Positions 104 to 5,352 of a stretch of DNA of 5,353 nucleotides are shown here, one piece after another. How positions within the stretch are numbered: position 1 is the first letter of the stretch; each line of letters starts with the position of its first letter. This DNA is from Escherichia coli. Its GTDB lineage: Bacteria > Pseudomonadota > Gammaproteobacteria > Enterobacterales > Enterobacteriaceae. The position numbers were made by a program, and so were the translations under genes. The notes beneath the pieces are model-generated. The model made no database searches and was not told the origin of the DNA. It saw nothing but the letters and a program-made list of their open reading frames with translations. The stretch lies in NCBI RefSeq assembly GCF_003334315.1, contig NZ_QOWR01000096.1; one strand, given 5' to 3'.

Positions 104-2293
104 TTAATCAGCTAATGGCTGCGGGCGACCAATCAAATACCCTTGCAGATATTGCACCCCGAGCTTATGCAATAGCGCCTGCTGCTGTTGCGTCTCGACA
201 AACTCCGCGACCACACTCAATGACTTCGCTTTCGCCAGATCGGTAATTGATCTCACAATCATCGCATCCAGCGTGTTCGTGACAATATCTTTCACAAAGA
301 CGCCATCAATTTTGATGATATCAGCCTGCAAACGCTTTAACCGTTCGTAGTTGGCATATCCGGTGCCAAAGTCATCAATCGCAATCCGGAAACCAAACTT
401 ATGCAGCTGCTCGATGTTGTACATGCTGCTTTCTGCGTTAGAAAACGCCTGCTCCTCGGTGATCTCAAGAATGACCGCCTGCGGGGAGATGTGATAACGC
501 TTAAACAGACGAATAATCCGCCCGGCAATATTCTTTTGCAGCAGCGTGAGCGGCATTAAATTGACTGAAAAGCGCGGTCCTTTTTTGTCGCAAGGGTGTG
601 TTGCCAGCCACTTCAACAAGGATTCCAGCACTTGCAAATCAAAACGCGCGCTAAGGTTAAACTGAGCAATAAGGGGCAGAAACTTATCCGGGGTCATAAT
701 GCCGCCGTCATATTTCAGTCGCGCGAGGATCTCATCATAACCTTCACCCTCTTTGTTGCGAATTGGCTGGGCGTAGAGCAGCAAATCACCCTGATCTAAC
801 GCCGTGCGAATGGTATTCAGCAATAGCACCTGTTTAGTGGTCTGCCCGGAAACCATCTCCTCTCTGCTATCCAGCGCCAGCACATGATGATGTGCGCAGG
901 ATTGCTCCGCCAGCCAGCTTAACTGCCCCAACAAGGGTTGCAGGGTTTCCTGATTTCCATCAAAACGCCCCCAGGCAGCACCATAGCCCATATCCAGCCC
1001 GGTATTGTTCCAGTGAATTTGCCGACTATTCAGGATGTTAACCATATGCTGGAGTCGCCCTTCCGTTTCCGGCCCGCTCAGCACTAACAGCAGTTCACTA
1101 CCCGGCAATTGATACAACTTTTCGTTTTCCTGCATCAACGGCAGCAGCGTACGGCAAATTGAGCGGATACAGTGAACGCGCATCATTAAGCCGTAATGAC
1201 GACTCATAAACTCAAGATTATCAATGCGCAGGCAGCAAAAACTCTTGCCCGCCTCTTGCTCCGGCGCTTGTTCCAACGCACGAAAGTTGGGTAGGAGCGT
1301 TAACGGATCTGTCAGCGCCTGCAAATGCCAGCGGCGATTAAGCCATTCACTGCGATGATAAATGCGCACCATATAGAGCAGGCAAACGCTAAAGGAAATC
1401 AGCACCGCAAGAATAAATGCCAGCGAATATTCGGTTTCCACCCCTTGCAAAAAGTTCTGGTTGTAATTCAGAAGGCAAAGCGTTGAAACAGCCCAGGTGA
1501 GATTTAAAAACGGATAGCGAAGCTTACCGACCCCGAGGGTAAAGATGATGAAGAAAACGGGTACCAGGTAACCGGCAATAAAGTCGTTTTCATAAGGTGT
1601 GCACAACAGAAGTAGCAGCACGCTTAACGCTGCCAGCCAGCTTAAGGTAAATGCGCGTTTCTCTTTGCCCAACGACGGAGCGATATCCCTGCGCCACAAT
1701 ATCTGCGCAAAGTGGGGACTTACAATCATGCGAGTGAGATAGTAGAAAAGCATGTTGTAAATCAGCACAGCGGTGAAAAGGCTTAGCAAATCAACGACCG
1801 TGAAAATGGCATCCGCATCGCCGAAAAAGGTGGATATCTTTAGCGGGAAATCAAAGAAGCTCCCCACAAGATACATGCTGCATTTGATGCCGATCGGCGT
1901 CACCAAACCAAGCCAGAACAGACGTTGCCAGACATATCGGCTGGTCAATCCATAACGCCAACGCGTCCCCAGCTGCCAGCGTAATATTGCGCAGGCACAC
2001 AACACGACAAACGTCTGGCTACCGAGCATGACCGCAGTCTGTAAAAAAGAGAGATGAAAGTTCCACAGATTGGTGCAAAACATCCCGCATAAAACGGGAA
2101 CGACACCGCGCCAGCCAAAGATAAACAAGATTGACAGCATTACGCACAGTGGCATCCACGCCAGAAAGATATAACTGGAATGGATAATGGCAAGTGGCGA
2201 AATAAAACGGGATAGCTGAATAAGTACCACGGTGAGCGTAAACGCTAGTGTGAATATCTTGATATTTTTTATCAGGTTATGCTCCACAAACAT
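104..2293 (-). CDS. pdeA: c-di-GMP phosphodiesterase PdeA (YfeA): N-terminal MASE1 membrane sensor domain, degenerate GGDEF domain, C-terminal EAL domain; 729 aa
   Basis: Single long minus-strand ORF ending in TAA at 104-106. The supplied ORF (104..2410) starts at a GTG; I place the start at the in-frame ATG at 2293 (MFVEHNLIKN...), which gives the 729 aa I remember for K-12 YfeA and begins directly with the hydrophobic multi-TM segment. A weak GAGAG Shine-Dalgarno-like element lies about 12 nt upstream. The C-terminal half carries EAL-domain signatures in the translation: YAQPI...EILARL, LEITEEQ, IDDFGTGYANY, KIDGVFV, EFVET. The GGDEF-equivalent position reads QLPGSEL, so the cyclase domain looks degenerate. 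Confidence 0.88.
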   Translation of the reverse strand: MFVEHNLIKNIKIFTLAFTLTVVLIQLSRFISPLAIIHSSYIFLAWMPLCVMLSILFIFGWRGVVPVLCGMFCTNLWNFHLSFLQTAVMLGSQTFVVLCACAILRWQLGTRWRYGLTSRYVWQRLFWLGLVTPIGIKCSMYLVGSFFDFPLKISTFFGDADAIFTVVDLLSLFTAVLIYNMLFYYLTRMIVSPHFAQILWRRDIAPSLGKEKRAFTLSWLAALSVLLLLLCTPYENDFIAGYLVPVFFIIFTLGVGKLRYPFLNLTWAVSTLCLLNYNQNFLQGVETEYSLAFILAVLISFSVCLLYMVRIYHRSEWLNRRWHLQALTDPLTLLPNFRALEQAPEQEAGKSFCCLRIDNLEFMSRHYGLMMRVHCIRSICRTLLPLMQENEKLYQLPGSELLLVLSGPETEGRLQHMVNILNSRQIHWNNTGLDMGYGAAWGRFDGNQETLQPLLGQLSWLAEQSCAHHHVLALDSREEMVSGQTTKQVLLLNTIRTALDQGDLLLYAQPIRNKEGEGYDEILARLKYDGGIMTPDKFLPLIAQFNLSARFDLQVLESLLKWLATHPCDKKGPRFSVNLMPLTLLQKNIAGRIIRLFKRYHISPQAVILEITEEQAFSNAESSMYNIEQLHKFGFRIAIDDFGTGYANYERLKRLQADIIKIDGVFVKDIVTNTLDAMIVRSITDLAKAKSLSVVAEFVETQQQQALLHKLGVQYLQGYLIGRPQPLAD

Positions 2294-2334
2294 GAGTACA
2301 CTACTCTCACTGATCGGGGTTTTCAGGCACACAA

Positions 2335-2363
2335 ATAATAAGTTTATTCGCATCGCGAAGCAA
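2335..2363 (-). promoter_or_regulatory. Candidate sigma70 promoter for pdeA (-35 TTGCTT, 17-nt spacer, -10 TATTAT on the minus strand)
   Basis: Minus strand reads TTGCTT (plus 2358-2363), a 17-nt spacer, then TATTAT (plus 2335-2340), about 45 nt upstream of the ATG at 2293. Motif match only. Confidence 0.2.
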
Positions 2364-2466
2364 ACAGGGGGCCAGCCTGTTGCCGATTTTTCATCCAATG
2401 ATGCTTTCACCAGGCGGCACTAACCCGGACGTAGACTGTATTACAAAAGCGGCAAAAAGCAGAGAC

Positions 2467-2492
2467 AAAAAACCCCCGCTTTGCAGCGAGGG
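2467..2492 (-). terminator. Rho-independent terminator of the tRNA-Ala transcription unit
   Basis: Minus strand reads CCCTCGCT-GCAA-AGCGGGGG followed by TTTTTTG: an 8-bp GC-rich stem (one G-U pair), 4-nt loop and 6-T tract, starting 9 nt after the tRNA 3' CCA. Confidence 0.75.
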
Positions 2493-2501
2493 TTGGAAAT
2501 T

Positions 2502-2577
<76 letters not shown>

Positions 2578-2609
2578 GTCACGTAAAGCTTGTCGAGTTG
2601 ACGGGCGGC

Positions 2610-2638
2610 ATCATATGAATTCCGCCCGAATGTGTCAA
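2610..2638 (-). promoter_or_regulatory. Promoter of the tRNA-Ala gene (-35 TTGACA, 17-nt spacer, -10 TATGAT, GC-rich discriminator)
   Basis: Minus strand reads TTGACA (plus 2633-2638), CATTCGGGCGGAATTCA, TATGAT (plus 2610-2615), then GCCGCCC. This is a consensus -35 with a 5/6 -10 and the GC-rich discriminator typical of stringently controlled stable-RNA promoters. The predicted start is roughly 20-25 nt upstream of the mature tRNA 5' end. Confidence 0.6.
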
Positions 2639-2748
2639 CGGCAAATTGCAACGTGTAGTTTCAATCGCTGAAAAATCAGGCAAATGAACAATTTTGGAAA
2701 ACCGCTCGCATTCAGTAGTTATTCATGTCACGGTTTCCTGTAAAGTGG

Positions 2749-2757
2749 TGTTATAAA
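2749..2757 (+). promoter_or_regulatory. Candidate extended -10 promoter element for yfeC-yfeD (TGtTATAAA)
   Basis: Plus strand has TG (2749-2750), one nt, then TATAAA (2752-2757). No good -35 lies at 16-18 nt, which an extended -10 can tolerate. It sits about 55 nt upstream of the yfeC start. Motif match only. Confidence 0.25.
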
Positions 2758-2812
2758 ATGAACTACTAATAGACCCACATACATTCAGGGAATTGTTATG
2801 TTCAAGGAGAGG

Positions 2813-3157
2813 ATGACACCAGATGAACTTGCCAGACTGACCGGCTATAGCCGCCAGACCATTAATAAATGGGTACGCAAGGAAGGCTGGACAACGTCAC
2901 CAAAACCTGGCGTCCAGGGTGGCAAAGCCCGACTGGTTCACGTCAATGAACAGGTTCGTGAATATATTCGCAATGCTGAACGTCCAGAAGGTCAGGGAGA
3001 AGCGCCTGCCCTTTCTGGTGATGCGCCGCTTGAAGTATTGCTGGTGACACTGGCGAAAGAGATGACGCCAGTTGAACAAAAACAGTTTACATCCTTGCTT
3101 CTGCGGGAAGGGATTATCGGATTGTTACAACGCTTAGGGATTCGCGATAGCAAATAA
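2813..3157 (+). CDS. yfeC: YfeC, small putative DNA-binding protein with an N-terminal excisionase/MerR-like winged HTH (DUF1323-type); 114 aa
   Basis: The supplied ORF is 2798..3157. I favour the internal ATG at 2813 (MTPDELARL...) because a strong Shine-Dalgarno AAGGAGAGG (2803-2811) sits directly upstream and it gives the 114-aa length I recall for K-12 YfeC; ATG 2798 remains possible. HTH signature ELARLTGYSRQTINKWVRKEGW. Stop TAA at 3155-3157. Confidence 0.82.
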   Translation: MTPDELARLTGYSRQTINKWVRKEGWTTSPKPGVQGGKARLVHVNEQVREYIRNAERPEGQGEAPALSGDAPLEVLLVTLAKEMTPVEQKQFTSLLLREGIIGLLQRLGIRDSK

Positions 3158-3158
3158 T

Positions 3159-3551
3159 ATGAAAAGATTACGCAATAAAATGACCACCGAAGAACTGGCT
3201 GAATGCCTCGGTGTGGCTAAACAAACTGTTAACCGTTGGATCAGAGAAAAAGGCTGGAAAACGGAAAAATTTCCCGGCGTGAAAGGCGGTCGTGCCAGAC
3301 TTATTCTGGTCGATACGCAAGTTTGCGAGTTTATTCAGAACACGCCAGCCTTCCATAACACACCAATGTTGATGGAAGCTGAAGAGAGAATTGCTGAATA
3401 CGCTCCTGGAGCACGCGCCCCGGCGTATCGACAAATCATCAACGCGATAGATAATATGACAGACATTGAGCAGGAAAAAGTCGCGCAATTTTTGTCACGT
3501 GAAGGAATTCGCAATTTCCTCGCCCGTCTCGATATTGACGAATCAGCATAA
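3159..3551 (+). CDS. yfeD: YfeD, paralog of YfeC; small putative DNA-binding protein with the same HTH type; 130 aa
   Basis: ORF starts at ATG 3159, 1 nt after the yfeC stop (TAAtATG), with no convincing independent Shine-Dalgarno, which suggests translational coupling. The N-terminus EELAECLGVAKQTVNRWIREKGW and C-terminus align with YfeC at about half of positions by eye. Stop TAA at 3549-3551. Confidence 0.85.
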   Translation: MKRLRNKMTTEELAECLGVAKQTVNRWIREKGWKTEKFPGVKGGRARLILVDTQVCEFIQNTPAFHNTPMLMEAEERIAEYAPGARAPAYRQIINAIDNMTDIEQEKVAQFLSREGIRNFLARLDIDESA

Positions 3552-3593
3552 ATAAAAAACGGCAGGATATTATCTCCTGCCGTTTATCTTTTT
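3551..3593. terminator. Bidirectional rho-independent terminator shared by convergent yfeD (+) and gltX (-)
   Basis: Perfect 11-bp stem AAACGGCAGGA (3557-3567) / TCCTGCCGTTT (3575-3585) with a 7-nt loop. It is followed on the plus strand by ATCTTTTT and on the minus strand by TTTTTTATTT. It lies between the yfeD stop (3551) and the gltX stop (3603). Confidence 0.8.
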
Positions 3594-3602
3594 ACACGCT
3601 AA

Positions 3603-5018
3603 TTACTGCTGATTTTCGCGTTCAGCAATAAAATCCAGCGCTTTGTTGATACGCTCGATACTGCGGGTCTTACCAATTGCGTGAACGGTAACATCCAGTG
3701 CTGGAGACTGCCCCGCACCGGTTACGGCGACACGCAGCGGCATACCAACTTTACCCATACCCACTTCCAGCTCATCCGCCGTCGCCTGAATAGCGTGATG
3801 AACGTTTTCAGCGGTCCAGTCAGTAATCGCGGCCAGTTTGTCACGAACCACTTCCAGCGGCTGACGCGCTACCGGACGCAGATGTTTTTTCGCGGCGTCG
3901 GCATCGAACTCAGCAAAATCTTCGTAGAAATAACGGCAGCTCTGTGCCATCTCTTTCAGCGTCTTGCAGCGTTCGCCCAGCAGTTTCACCAGATCAGCCA
4001 GCTGCGGGCCGTTACGGGTATCGATATTTTCCTGCTCAATGTGCCACTGTAAGTGAGTAGCAACATACTCCGGCGGCAGCGCGTTAATGTAGTGATGGTT
4101 CAGCCACAGCAGCTTGTCGGTGTTGAACGCACTGGCAGATTTGCTGACGGCATTCAAAGTGAAGTATTTGATCATCTCTTCACGAGTGAAGATTTCCTGA
4201 TCGCCGTGGGACCAGCCCAGACGCACCAGATAGTTCAGCAGTGCTTCTGGCAAATAACCGTCATCACGATACTGCATTACGCTGACTGCCCCGTGACGTT
4301 TGGACAGTTTTTTACCGTCATCGCCATTGATCATAGAAACGTGCGCGTAAACCGGCACCGGCGCTTTCAGGGCCTTAAGAATGTTGATCTGGCGTGGCGT
4401 GTTGTTGATATGGTCTTCGCCACGGATAACGTGGGTGATTTCCATATCCCAGTCATCGACAACCACACAGAAGTTATAGGTTGGGGAACCATCGGTACGG
4501 CGGATAATAAGATCGTCCAGTTCCTGGTTGCTGAACTCGATCGGACCACGGATCTGATCGTCAAAAACAACAGAACCTTCCTGCGGGTTAGCAAAACGTA
4601 CAACACACGGTTCATCATCAGCATGATGCTCATGGCTGTGGCGGCAGCGACCGTCATAACGCGGCTTCTCACCTTTCGCCATTTGCTCTTCGCGCAGCGC
4701 TTCCAGGCGCTCTTTAGAGCAATAGCATTTATAAGCAGTGCCCTCTTCCAGCATCTGATCGATCACCGCGTTGTAGCGATCAAAACGTTTGGTCTGGTAG
4801 TACGGACCTTCATCCCACTCCAGGCTCAGCCAGTTCATGCCATCCATAATGGCTTCGATAGCTTCCGGCGTGGAACGCTCAAGATCGGTGTCTTCAATAC
4901 GCAGCACGAACTCACCGCCGTGGTTACGTGCAAAAAGCCAGGAGTAAAGAGCAGTACGCGCGCCGCCAACGTGCAGATAGCCTGTTGGGCTTGGCGCGAA
5001 GCGAGTTTTGATTTTCAT
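3603..5018 (-). CDS. gltX: Glutamyl-tRNA synthetase (GluRS), class I aminoacyl-tRNA synthetase; 471 aa
   Basis: Translation begins [27 protein letters not shown] with the class I HIGH motif (HVGG), contains the KMSKS-type motif KLSKR, and has the zinc-binding CYC...CRH segment of E. coli GluRS. ATG at 5018 is preceded by Shine-Dalgarno TAAGG; stop TAA at 3603-3605. The length matches E. coli GltX as I recall it. Confidence 0.97.
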
Positions 5019-5276: not shown

Positions 5277-5352
5277 GGGTGATTAGCTCAGCTGGGAGAG
5301 CACCTCCCTTACAAGGAGGGGGTCGGCGGTTCGATCCCGTCATCACCCACCA
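5277..5352 (+). tRNA. valU: tRNA-Val (anticodon UAC), 76 nt with encoded CCA; first gene of the valU operon
   Basis: Sequence GGGTGATTAGCTCAGCTGGGAGAGCACCTCCCTTACAAGGAGGGGGTCGGCGGTTCGATCCCGTCATCACCCACCA. Acceptor stem GGGUGAU/AUCACCC, anticodon loop CUUACAA (anticodon UAC), GGTTCGATCC T-arm. It ends 1 nt before the window edge. Confidence 0.95.

Follow-up and report, generated by a model that had tools for sequence, protein, structure and literature searches.

BldC of Streptomyces and the phage excisionases (Xis) are known to oligomerise cooperatively on DNA, and BldC, which has no C-terminal dimerisation hairpin, multimerises head to tail. Together with the Mu repressor and the MerR family, these are the described systems to which YfeC and YfeD of Escherichia coli are most readily compared, two small proteins encoded side by side within the 5,353 nucleotides of E. 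coli DNA analysed here (the window). Both are founding members of PF07037, the NCBI 'YfeC-like transcriptional regulator' family, and do not differ from it. They match this Pfam model (YfeC-like, formerly DUF1323) over its full length, positions 1-122 of 122, at E=3.8e-51 for YfeC and E=1.1e-63 for YfeD. The next-best Pfam match is HTH_17, at E=8.5e-4 for YfeC and 4.9e-7 for YfeD, of which we count only that of YfeD as significant; thus, the two matches expected in the original prediction, DUF1323 and HTH_17, were both obtained. The family is tiny: among 1.84 billion cluster representatives, 237 match at E<=1e-3, many of them fragments, and it appears essentially limited to the Enterobacteriaceae lineage.

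At the level of single domains, Foldseek returned BldC, Xis, the Mu repressor and RacA with probabilities of 0.96-0.99. The best structural match is BldC (PDB 6ama/6amk; target TM 0.65-0.72, with 0.72 for 6amk, probability 0.98-0.99), which resembles YfeC and YfeD in being a small MerR-like winged helix-turn-helix (HTH) protein without effector domain. However, BldC stems from a different phylum, its identity to the two proteins is 17-20%, and the NCBIfam model HTH_BldC, which has a cut-off of 77 bits, is matched at only 14 bits (E=0.025). The phage excisionases and HTH_17 proteins (PF12728, TIGR01764) share the winged HTH (probability 0.98-0.99, target TM 0.66-0.68, the latter value for Xis of mycobacteriophage Pukovnik, PDB 4j2n), and YfeD matches their HTH_17 model as given above. 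In contrast to excisionases, YfeC and YfeD carry an additional linker and C-terminal hairpin, they score 18.6 and 27.7 bits, respectively, with the TIGR01764 excisionase model and hence below its curated cut-off of 28.8, and their neighbours are pdeA, tRNA-Ala and gltX rather than an integrase or other parts of an integrated element. The Mu repressor (1qpm) matches in fold with 28% identity over 60 columns and an rmsd of 3.7 Å, MuA transposase (1tns) weakly so (8.0 Å over 71 columns), and a homolog from Chimaeribacter is labelled 'HTH Mu-type domain-containing protein' by UniRef; however, Pfam HTH_Tnp_Mu_1 is matched only at E=0.043, and the context is neither that of a transposase nor that of a repressor. 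Similarly, MerR proteins belong to the same winged-HTH superfamily, and CarH and RacA are among the structural matches, but the matches to Pfam MerR_1 are non-significant (E=0.2 for YfeC, 0.32 for YfeD), and in place of a long antiparallel coiled coil and effector region the AlphaFold2 (AF2) models have a linker and a short two-helix hairpin. The RefSeq name 'MerR family' for YfeD is thus unsupported and looks like an over-assignment. No PDB entry was matched by the YfeD sequence even at E<=10. The excisionase/MerR-like winged HTH proposed from the sequence alone is borne out by the HTH_17 match, the AF2 fold and the Foldseek results.

In our opinion, yfeC-yfeD is best explained as a vertically inherited two-gene operon for two paralogous DNA-binding regulators which act mostly as separate dimers at different sites, a reading to which we assign a probability of about 0.6. 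The genes, the family, DNA binding in vivo and target lists are already published, and the discovery value is accordingly small.

The locus, its gene starts and its inheritance

The features of the locus are as follows.

2502-2577, minus strand: tRNA-Ala(GGC)
2749-2757, plus strand: predicted extended -10 element TGtTATAAA of the yfeCD operon, read from the sequence
2787-2792, plus strand: Shine-Dalgarno-like AGGGAA, 5 nt 5' of the ATG at 2798
2798-3157, plus strand: yfeC, 119-residue form (open reading frame list, PF07037 match, start-codon conservation)
2813-3157, plus strand: yfeC as annotated in K-12, 114 residues
3155-3161, plus strand: junction TAA-T-ATG (yfeC stop 3155-3157, T 3158, yfeD ATG from 3159)
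3159-3551, plus strand: yfeD, 130 residues (open reading frame list, PF07037 match)
3557-3585, both strands: predicted bidirectional intrinsic terminator common to the convergent yfeD and gltX, 11-pair stem with a T-rich tail on both strands
3603-5018, minus strand: gltX

Comparison of related loci points to the ATG at 2798 (MFKER-MTPDEL...), rather than that at 2813, as the most likely conserved start of yfeC. An in-frame ATG or GTG is located 15 nt upstream of the K-12 start in 91 of 91 related loci, nearly all of which have an AGGAA or AGGGAA box before it, and distant homologs possess Ile or Val where 'M1' of the K-12 protein stands. The 119-residue form is already annotated by PGAP in other E. 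coli genomes. The common strand originally noted for the two genes stands, whereas the predicted length of 114 residues for YfeC follows the K-12 annotation, in which the start codon has probably been placed 15 nt too far downstream. YfeD has an N-terminal extension, MKRLRNK, which precedes the Met (codon at 3180) aligning with M1 of K-12 YfeC and which is kept at the amino-acid level across genera.

The operon is predicted to be transcribed from an extended -10 promoter with a start near 2764, and transcription would extend to the terminator shared with gltX. A gtgcTATAA block is kept in 26 aligned upstream regions from various genera. Inspection of the sequence revealed no recognisable -35 hexamer for this promoter, and a simple promoter scan missed the extended -10 element because the -35 region is poor. 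In a search against Rfam, the tRNA was the sole match.

As predicted, the pair is flanked by a tRNA gene, that of tRNA-Ala(GGC), and a synthetase gene, gltX. In a scan of a genome collection, for which one genome per species was used, 80 Enterobacteriaceae loci were retained, and the pair was present in 80 of the 80. The gene order yfeA-yfeC-yfeD-gltX holds in these 80 species, with pdeA, tRNA-Ala and gltX as neighbours both there and in the window, and distant PF07037 members likewise adjoin gltX. This fixed order, together with the position of the distant members, argues for vertical inheritance, and the conservation of the pair across the Enterobacteriaceae, which the original prediction had named as a check, was thus found. 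The operon would be a chromosomal one, occurring essentially only in Enterobacteriaceae. In one natural isolate, an IS903B insertion is present at the locus and the YfeC-like regulator is annotated in two pieces.

The two proteins are tandem paralogs, as had been proposed: in BLASTP, the alignment extends across practically the whole of both proteins, C-terminal motif included, with 48 of 123 residues identical (39%), 55% positives and E=6e-27. Among the first 55 positions, of which about half had been predicted to align, 28 are identical by hand count on this alignment. In a tree, first copies and second copies form separate clades, and single-copy genes fall outside both. Along with the presence of the pair in all Enterobacteriaceae loci, this agrees with the ancient duplication suggested originally, and the pattern is read as a single such event, followed by faster divergence of YfeD. 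Across species, the mean pairwise identity of YfeC is 88% in the N-terminal domain, 35% in the middle region (residues 61-82) and 76% in the C-terminal hairpin, while the N-terminal domain of YfeD (residues 1-62) remains below that of YfeC at 67%. Of the two copies, YfeC would thus be the constrained one which resembles the ancestor, whereas YfeD diverges faster.

Two further classifications of the pair bear on this history. RASTA-Bacteria (2007) predicted yfeC-yfeD to be a toxin-antitoxin system and ranked it as a high-confidence candidate, and the label was repeated in the E. coli K1 TraDIS paper. The features that invite a type II assignment are indeed present, that is, two small, adjacent, co-oriented and co-transcribed genes with a tight junction and an HTH on one of the products. 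However, the two products, being paralogs, agree in fold and domain order, and neither belongs to a distinct toxin family, as searches of NCBIfam, PHROGs and PADLOC for toxin families gave no match above noise, PADLOC giving no more than a weak match of generic HTH type, to MADS mad1. The genes are inherited strictly vertically in fixed order instead of showing a patchy or mobile spread. Loss of the supposed antitoxin is not deleterious in the literature: yfeC deletion mutants grow like wild type (E. coli K1 TraDIS paper), although yfeD mRNA rises about 20-fold. The natural isolate with the interrupted regulator does not fit such a system either. We therefore regard a toxin-antitoxin pair as effectively refuted and its probability as negligible.

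A mobile element or domesticated excisionase was rejected as well. A tblastn search detected no phage homologs of the pair, no integrase or att site was found near yfeC-yfeD, and the pair is situated on the promoter side of the tRNA gene and not on its 3' side. Matches occurred in 13 of 72,556 records of a plasmid collection, 12 of them typed as non-mobilizable and one as conjugative, and these include megabase-size records which, judging from their size, resemble mislabelled chromosomes. Together with the fixed gene order, these findings agree with the initial view that the pair has no link to a mobile element.

The stop-start junction

The genes had been described as separated by a single nucleotide without a ribosome-binding site in between, and this proved to be conserved. 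Of 82 Enterobacteriaceae loci, 52 have a gap of 1 nt, and in 79 the gap does not exceed 9 nt or the genes overlap; among genera it ranges from -20 to +19 nt, with 47 nt in Cedecea. Pairing of the anti-Shine-Dalgarno sequence with the 18 nt preceding the yfeD ATG amounts to +0.3 kcal/mol, so yfeD is devoid of a Shine-Dalgarno sequence, and in nearly all loci the corresponding duplex is weaker than -3.5 kcal/mol. Since yfeD has no Shine-Dalgarno sequence and begins 1 nt past the yfeC stop, we infer that the two genes are translationally coupled, and that most YfeD would be made by ribosomes which have just finished yfeC and reinitiate after termination. A hairpin hiding the yfeD start codon was sought and rejected: shuffled sequences fold at least as well as the AU-rich junction RNA (z=+0.85), in whose minimum-energy fold the start codon remains single-stranded.

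The same lack of structure could permit Shine-Dalgarno-independent initiation from scratch, and the junction may then reflect nothing but compact operon packing, with yfeD initiated independently, for example by way of ribosomal protein S1 on an unstructured, A-rich leader, and the stoichiometry left unfixed. Such an arrangement would be in line with the A-rich and conserved early codons of yfeD (AUGAAAAGAUUACGCAAUAAAAUG) and with a gap that varies between genera and widens in Cedecea. In addition, the wild-type read density of yfeD, back-calculated from published baseMean and fold-change values, lies about 5-fold below that of yfeC, and this does not agree with simple 1:1 co-expression. However, 52 of the 82 loci keep exactly a stop codon (TAA or TGA), one nucleotide and ATG, further loci display ATGA and TAATG overlaps, which are classical reinitiation layouts, and a Shine-Dalgarno sequence is almost universally missing from yfeD though the yfeC start has one. 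We thus consider independent initiation the less probable explanation. With translational coupling as the preferred reading, the junction, available from about 80 species, offers a clean natural system for studying both coupling and the divergence of paralogous dimers.

Domain order and oligomeric state

Both proteins consist of a short basic arm, a winged HTH of the Xis/BldC/Mu-repressor/MerR superfamily, a disordered linker of 15-25 residues and a C-terminal hairpin. The corresponding segments are listed below.

2798-2977, plus strand: YfeC residues 1-60, basic N-terminal arm (MFKER) and winged HTH (AF2, Foldseek)
2978-3022, plus strand: YfeC residues 61-75, disordered and poorly conserved linker (pLDDT <50)
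3023-3136, plus strand: YfeC C-terminal two-helix hairpin, a putative dimerisation module (AF2)
3159-3344, plus strand: YfeD residues 1-62, basic arm and winged HTH (AF2)
3420-3527, plus strand: YfeD residues 88-123, C-terminal two-helix hairpin (AF2, fused C-domain model)

The N-terminal blocks are modelled with pLDDT values of 72-82 for YfeC and 73-87 for YfeD (residues 150-211 of the AF2 model), with the winged HTH in the order strand-helix-helix-strand-strand-helix. The sequence PGVQGGKARL of YfeC forms the loop between strands 2 and 3, that is, the wing, and extends into strand 3. Helix 2 would read the major groove, while the GG(K/R)AR wing would touch the backbone or the minor groove. 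The hairpin of YfeC is characterised by the motif EMTPxEQKQ...LLLREGIxGLLQRLGI, with AF2 helices at residues 77-88 and 91-112, and the R, E and G of REG as well as the RL positions are invariant in YfeC and YfeD. These hairpins may pair two subunits into a four-helix bundle. The active species would then be dimeric, with its two DNA-reading heads on loose tethers.

If coupled translation fixed the stoichiometry, as suggested originally along with a heterodimer, an obligate or at least predominant YfeC-YfeD heterodimer might be the species that binds DNA, and a number of observations are compatible with this: the junction is kept in 79 of 82 loci, neither gene occurs without the other in the Enterobacteriaceae loci analysed, and the invariant residues of the C-terminal motif are common to both paralogs. 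An AF2 model of the YfeC C-domain fused through a 20-residue linker to the YfeD C-domain, built with a paired alignment and for the YfeC-YfeD combination alone, is compact (pTM 0.65), and the pLDDT of the helix block increases from 67-78 to 83-89. The model thus allows that the hairpins of YfeC and YfeD can still pair. Foldseek found no meaningful neighbour for it, and a model of the fused full-length proteins reached a pTM of 0.31 and is therefore uninformative on the interface.

Against the heterodimer stands, in the first place, the distribution of binding sites. Among 48 YfeC and 41 YfeD ChIP-exo peak positions, one is common within 100 bp and three within 1 kb; the common peak has the same coordinate for both proteins (3332954, ispB/rplU/sfsB region), and is in itself a point for mixed dimers. 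A single common site argues against an obligate heterodimer. It should be noted that this non-overlap is weak evidence against mixed dimers, since the strains carried C-terminal 8xmyc tags (PMC8464067), which are located beside the putative hairpin and, in the case of yfeC, break the junction. In addition, single-copy homologs in Chimaeribacter and in one metagenomic contig indicate that the ancestral protein worked without a partner. In Cedecea, 47 nt separate the two genes, YfeD has diverged at a much higher rate than YfeC, and the yfeC deletion grows normally with about 20-fold more yfeD mRNA. For these reasons an obligate or predominant heterodimer appears unlikely, and we favour YfeC and YfeD as mostly separate dimers at different sites; mixed dimers may form, but would not be the main DNA-bound species.

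DNA binding and the published targets

The original statement that the function is essentially unknown and that no regulon is defined is outdated. The ChIP-exo data of Gao et al. (2021, PMC8464067) comprise 50 sites for YfeC and 43 for YfeD, and for YfeC the authors also give a motif and the transcriptome of the knockout. Binding to DNA in vivo is thus shown for both proteins, and as 16 of the 20 direct targets of YfeC are repressed (PMC8464067), repression is its main mode of action; in K-12 RefSeq it is named 'DNA-binding transcriptional dual regulator'. Some positions turn up again among the sites of unrelated factors in this dataset (PMC8464067), suggesting noise in the ChIP-exo data. With regard to phenotypes, an altered release of extracellular DNA by the knockout, also a phenotype of the hns mutant, is cited in PMC8464067, and the E. 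coli K1 TraDIS paper reports that the knockout lowers gut colonisation and lethality.

In the yfeC deletion, yfeD is strongly upregulated (log2FC +4.3, padj 5e-133, about 20-fold), and yfeCD was entered among the direct YfeC targets by the authors (PMC8464067). By ChIP-exo, YfeC has a single peak in the vicinity of the operon, at about 2491-2524 of the window and thus at the 3' end of the tRNA-Ala gene, approximately 270 bp before the predicted transcription start and 310 bp from the ATG at 2798, and hence off the promoter. No TTC-N6-GAA site occurs in the yfeC promoter region, the only one in the window being located inside gltX, and no TTCCGGAA-like site is present near the operon and its promoter region. 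Direct autoregulation thus finds no confirmation in the sequence, and the rise of yfeD may stem from polarity of the deletion construct. The published deletion data are confounded by this rise, and part of the YfeC regulon in RegulonDB and EcoCyc may belong to YfeD. An example is ybaQ, which is about 36-fold down in the yfeC deletion and at which a YfeD peak, and no YfeC peak, was found by ChIP-exo.

The ybaQ pattern also hints at a self-limiting circuit, in which YfeC would repress the operon, coupling would tie YfeD output to that of YfeC, and YfeD would titrate or redirect YfeC. We regard such a circuit as doubtful, and equally so the proposed routes, by which YfeD would act through the shared C-terminal hairpin or send YfeC to other sites. 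If it were true, the effects on extracellular DNA and gut colonisation and part of the 'YfeC regulon' would be owed to an excess of YfeD.

A different view of the binding data is that YfeC and YfeD are not classical operator-specific regulators but architectural proteins, similar to nucleoid-associated proteins or to Xis and BldC. They would occupy numerous weak and degenerate sites, possibly multimerising head to tail, and alter the shape of the DNA, and the published 'regulons' would be mostly indirect. Their nearest structural matches are BldC and phage Xis, each protein possesses a flexible linker and a basic arm, and the extracellular-DNA phenotype is common to the hns mutant. Furthermore, 40% of the YfeC sites are located within genes and the motif is weak (MEME E=7e-10; PMC8464067). 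Our k-mer scan of the 10 strongest YfeC sites recovered only a loose TCCGGAA/CGGAAA core in 3-4 of them, and by a rough calculation this does not remain significant once multiple testing is allowed for. However, read counts for the two genes are low (baseMean 55 and 267; PMC8464067), which suggests an expression too low for a nucleoid protein, and the conserved C-terminal hairpin, missing in BldC and Xis, points to a defined dimer. Some peaks are also very strong, such as that in the cha region (NC_000913.2 1271664-1271685), which has a signal-to-noise ratio of 2057 (PMC8464067). An architectural role thus seems rather improbable to us, and separate dimers at different sites remain the preferred reading.

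Gene pair, family and yfeC start codon

The yfeC-yfeD locus would be a single operon encoding two small dimeric DNA-binding regulators, in each of which a basic arm and a winged helix-turn-helix (HTH) would read DNA, while a flexible linker would tether these parts to a dimerising C-terminal two-helix hairpin. Most translation of yfeD would come from ribosomes that terminate on yfeC, YfeC would be the constrained copy and mainly a repressor, and the two proteins would mostly occupy different sites, mixed dimers being possible as a secondary species. We give this mechanism as a whole a probability of roughly 60%. The window is E. coli K-12 sequence, being identical to MG1655 (NC_000913.3) over positions 2161-3745 (1,585 bases compared) save for one absent 115-bp tRNA-Ala unit, and is arranged as follows.

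Annotated start near 2293, minus strand: pdeA/yfeA
2502-2577, minus strand: tRNA-Ala(GGC)
Between tRNA-Ala and gltX, plus strand: yfeC, then yfeD
3557-3585: bidirectional terminator downstream of yfeD
3603-5018, minus strand: gltX
5277-5352: tRNA-Val

Both open reading frames of the original prediction are present at 2813-3551, and their products are paralogs, with 48 of 123 residues identical (39%; BLASTP, E=6e-27) in a full-length alignment that includes the C-terminal motifs noted as similar. As expected, the Pfam family PF07037 (YfeC-like, formerly DUF1323) is the top match for both proteins, over the entire length of the model (E=3.8e-51 for YfeC, 1.1e-63 for YfeD), followed by HTH_17.

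The start of yfeC requires correction. An in-frame ATG or GTG is located 15 nt upstream of the K-12 start in 91/91 related loci, with an AGGAA/AGGGAA box about 5-8 nt ahead of it, and yields the N-terminus M(F/I/L)KER-MTP; the most distant homologs have Ile or Val in place of the K-12 'M1', and PGAP annotates 119 aa in other E. coli genomes versus 114 aa in the K-12 reference. Thus, the yfeC coding sequence is likely 2798-3157. With this start, the conserved 'MT(P/T)xEL' would be preceded in both paralogs by a short basic arm at the N-terminus (YfeC, MFKER; YfeD, MKRLRNK). Across genera, the amino-acid sequence of the YfeD arm is conserved.

The junction and the modelled domains

The yfeC stop codon (TAA, 3155-3157) is separated from the yfeD ATG at 3159 by the proposed single nucleotide, and the 18 nt upstream of this ATG lack Shine-Dalgarno complementarity (+0.3 kcal/mol), in line with the suggested absence of an independent ribosome-binding site. 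The stop-to-start distance is 1 nt in 52 of 82 loci; the genes overlap by 1 to 20 nt in 8, and are spaced by 2 to 9 nt in 19 and by 19 nt in 3 (47 nt in Cedecea, which lies outside this set). A Shine-Dalgarno sequence precedes yfeD in almost no locus. This layout fits termination-reinitiation. The RNA fold of 3100-3220 is less stable than that of shuffled sequence (z=+0.85) and its start codon is unpaired, leaving no RNA hairpin for yfeC-translating ribosomes to open. Since an unstructured, A-rich start region could also allow independent initiation of yfeD, we only infer translational coupling of the two genes.

A sequence search of the PDB with YfeD returned no relative up to E<=10. AlphaFold2 was run on artificial single-chain fusions with paired alignments built from the loci. 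In the full-length YfeC-(GGGGS)6-YfeD model (mean pLDDT 66.7, pTM 0.31), each half is predicted as a strand-helix-helix-strand-strand-helix block (pLDDT 72-87), a disordered linker (pLDDT <50) and two helices. Foldseek found no PDB match to the whole fused chain at E<=0.001; at the domain level, BldC (target TM 0.65-0.72), Pukovnik Xis (target TM 0.66-0.68), the Mu repressor (28% identity) and RacA matched the winged-HTH domain with probabilities of 0.96-0.99, which backs the proposed excisionase/MerR-like fold. The MuA DNA-binding domain matched more weakly (rmsd 8.0 Å), and CarH chains gave long, high-rmsd alignments (probability 0.66-0.84). The conserved PGVxGGxARL sits in the modelled strand 2-3 loop (the wing) and extends into strand 3. 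Modelled alone with a 20-residue linker, the C-terminal hairpins gave five consistent models (pTM 0.65, helix block pLDDT 83-89) compatible with packing as a four-helix bundle; pairing of the hairpins is plausible, and the model is not specific to a heterodimer. A Foldseek search for solved structures resembling this module found none. The original observation is thus real and its structural reading largely correct.

Published binding sites and a possible role of yfeD in yfeC deletion data

DNA binding in vivo has been shown for both proteins by ChIP-exo with 8xmyc-tagged YfeC and YfeD (Gao et al. 2021; PMC8464067), yielding 50 YfeC sites, with a motif given as TTC-rich inverted repeats, and 43 YfeD sites; deletion of yfeC altered 205 genes, 20 of which were called direct targets, 16 of these being repressed. 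RefSeq names K-12 YfeC a 'DNA-binding transcriptional dual regulator', and other publications already cite YfeC interactions. An E. coli K1 yfeC deletion strain colonised the small intestine poorly and was less lethal in neonatal rats, LEE1 transcription in EHEC was unaffected according to published yfeC phenotype data, and a yfeC mutant has been cited as having altered extracellular DNA production. Already in 2007, RASTA-Bacteria predicted yfeC/yfeD to be a toxin-antitoxin pair. In view of the regulon data, the phenotypes and the RefSeq name, the statement that neither protein has a defined regulon is outdated; with genes named, family known and regulons published, the finding itself is already known. 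What remains of value are the corrected yfeC start codon, the conserved coupling arrangement and the caution that yfeD confounds yfeC deletion data.

A heterodimer had been proposed as a possibility. Among 48 distinct YfeC and 41 distinct YfeD peak positions, a single one is shared, at 3332954 (ispB/rplU/sfsB region), with two further pairs within 1 kb, an overlap to be read with the caveats that the 8xmyc tags adjoin the putative dimerisation hairpin and that the yfeC tag breaks the junction with yfeD. This argues against an obligate YfeC-YfeD heterodimer as the DNA-bound species; mostly separate sites would be the preferred reading. A further caveat is that several sites are found for unrelated factors in the dataset as well, including uxaB 1608739, yffQ 2561401, uxaC 3242823 and mdtL 3889534.

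Deletion of yfeC is accompanied by an increase of about 20-fold in yfeD mRNA (padj 5e-133), and yfeCD is among the direct targets given by the authors (PMC8464067). The sole nearby YfeC peak, NC_000913.2 2516052-2516085, assigned to 'yfeC', maps to window positions 2491-2524, which is the tRNA-Ala 3' end next to the terminator at 2471-2494 and not the yfeC promoter; the predicted yfeC transcription start is about 270 bp further downstream, and the ATG at 2798 is about 310 bp away. The mapping uses an NC_000913.2-to-.3 offset which we take to be correct and which agrees with the gene labels at four other fetched peaks. ChIP artefacts are known to arise at strongly transcribed tRNA genes and in repeated sequence. 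A TTC-N6-GAA or TTCCGGAA-like element was not found in the yfeC promoter region. Given the distant peak and the lack of a promoter element, the rise in yfeD could therefore be due either to autoregulation or to polarity caused by deleting yfeC. ybaQ, which is down about 36-fold in the deletion strain, has a YfeD peak (signal/noise 29.7) and no YfeC peak (PMC8464067, Datasets S4 and S6), and may be repressed by YfeD. Part of the 'YfeC regulon' may thus reflect YfeD excess, which would confound the yfeC deletion transcriptome.

Distribution and the tRNA-Ala neighbourhood

In a scan of one genome per bacterial species, the best 80 of 195 confirmed loci were kept. All 80 are from Enterobacteriaceae (including Escherichia, Citrobacter, Salmonella, Enterobacter, Klebsiella, Raoultella, Kluyvera and Kosakonia), and in all 80 yfeD directly follows yfeC, confirming conservation of the pair; in most, gltX is convergent downstream and yfeA lies upstream. 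Among 1.84 billion cluster representatives, a profile search returned only 237 proteins at E<=1e-3, many of them fragments. The divergent full-length named members belong to Enterobacteriaceae (Atlantibacter, Cedecea, Scandinavium, Entomohabitans), with Chimaeribacter (Yersiniaceae) as sole exception, and also adjoin gltX on the contigs examined; Atlantibacter, Entomohabitans and Cedecea carry pairs, Chimaeribacter and one metagenomic contig a single gene. In a neighbour-joining tree without bootstrap support, all first copies form one short-branched clade and nearly all second copies one long-branched clade, the single-copy genes fall outside both, and the Cedecea second copy is unresolved at the base. 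Mean pairwise identity is 88% for YfeC versus 67% for YfeD in the N-domain, and 76% versus 54% in the C-domain. The pattern is consistent with a single old duplication, after which the copies diverged asymmetrically.

No tblastn match was found among 50,697 phage records, and 13 of 72,556 'plasmid' records matched, several of them megabase-size and resembling mislabelled chromosomes, one typed conjugative. The locus looks chromosomal and vertically inherited. In E. coli BL12 (NZ_CP079780.1), a natural duck isolate, an IS5-like IS903B is inserted at the locus, where the annotation splits the YfeC-like regulator in two; this suggests that at least one natural isolate can do without an intact yfeC. 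Separately, proteins of 400-1300 aa (P0174, P0175, P0182, P0185 and others) with 5-14 tandem stretches matching the YfeC-like HTH profile look like multi-HTH repeat proteins.

The window has a single tRNA-Ala gene, because one tandem alaX/alaW tRNA-Ala(GGC) gene with its spacer (NC_000913.3 2518036-2518150) is absent at 2496/2497; two are present in 15/15 E. coli genomes listed among 5,428 matching records. The loss could be a real recombinational collapse or a repeat collapsed in assembly. The tRNA-Ala operon has a near-consensus promoter divergent from yfeC (2610-2638, minus strand; TTGACA, 17 nt, TATGAT, GC-rich discriminator GCCGCCC), which together with its intrinsic terminator (2471-2494, minus strand) accounts for the intergenic blocks of highest conservation. 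The palindrome TTTCA-atcgc-TGAAA (2659-2673), situated between the divergent promoters of tRNA-Ala and yfeC, is strongly conserved across genera and could be a Fis or UP-type element of the tRNA promoter, or a regulator site. On the other side, the mechanical pdeA/yfeA reading frame (104-2410, minus strand) reaches a GTG at 2410 (768 aa; the annotated protein has 729 aa), and this upstream extension, ending within about 90 bp of the tRNA gene, is probably untranslated. About 100 nt upstream of yfeC, 26 of 92 loci (L018-L071, about -102 from the ATG; including Leclercia, Lelliottia, Enterobacter, Phytobacter, Pluralibacter and Yokenella) have GCGAG-N4-CTCGC, a perfect inverted repeat whose arms are conserved and whose spacer varies; in E. 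coli, Salmonella and Citrobacter the right arm alone is left (CTCGCA; window 2705-2710), and the repeat could represent an operator that the Escherichia lineage has lost.
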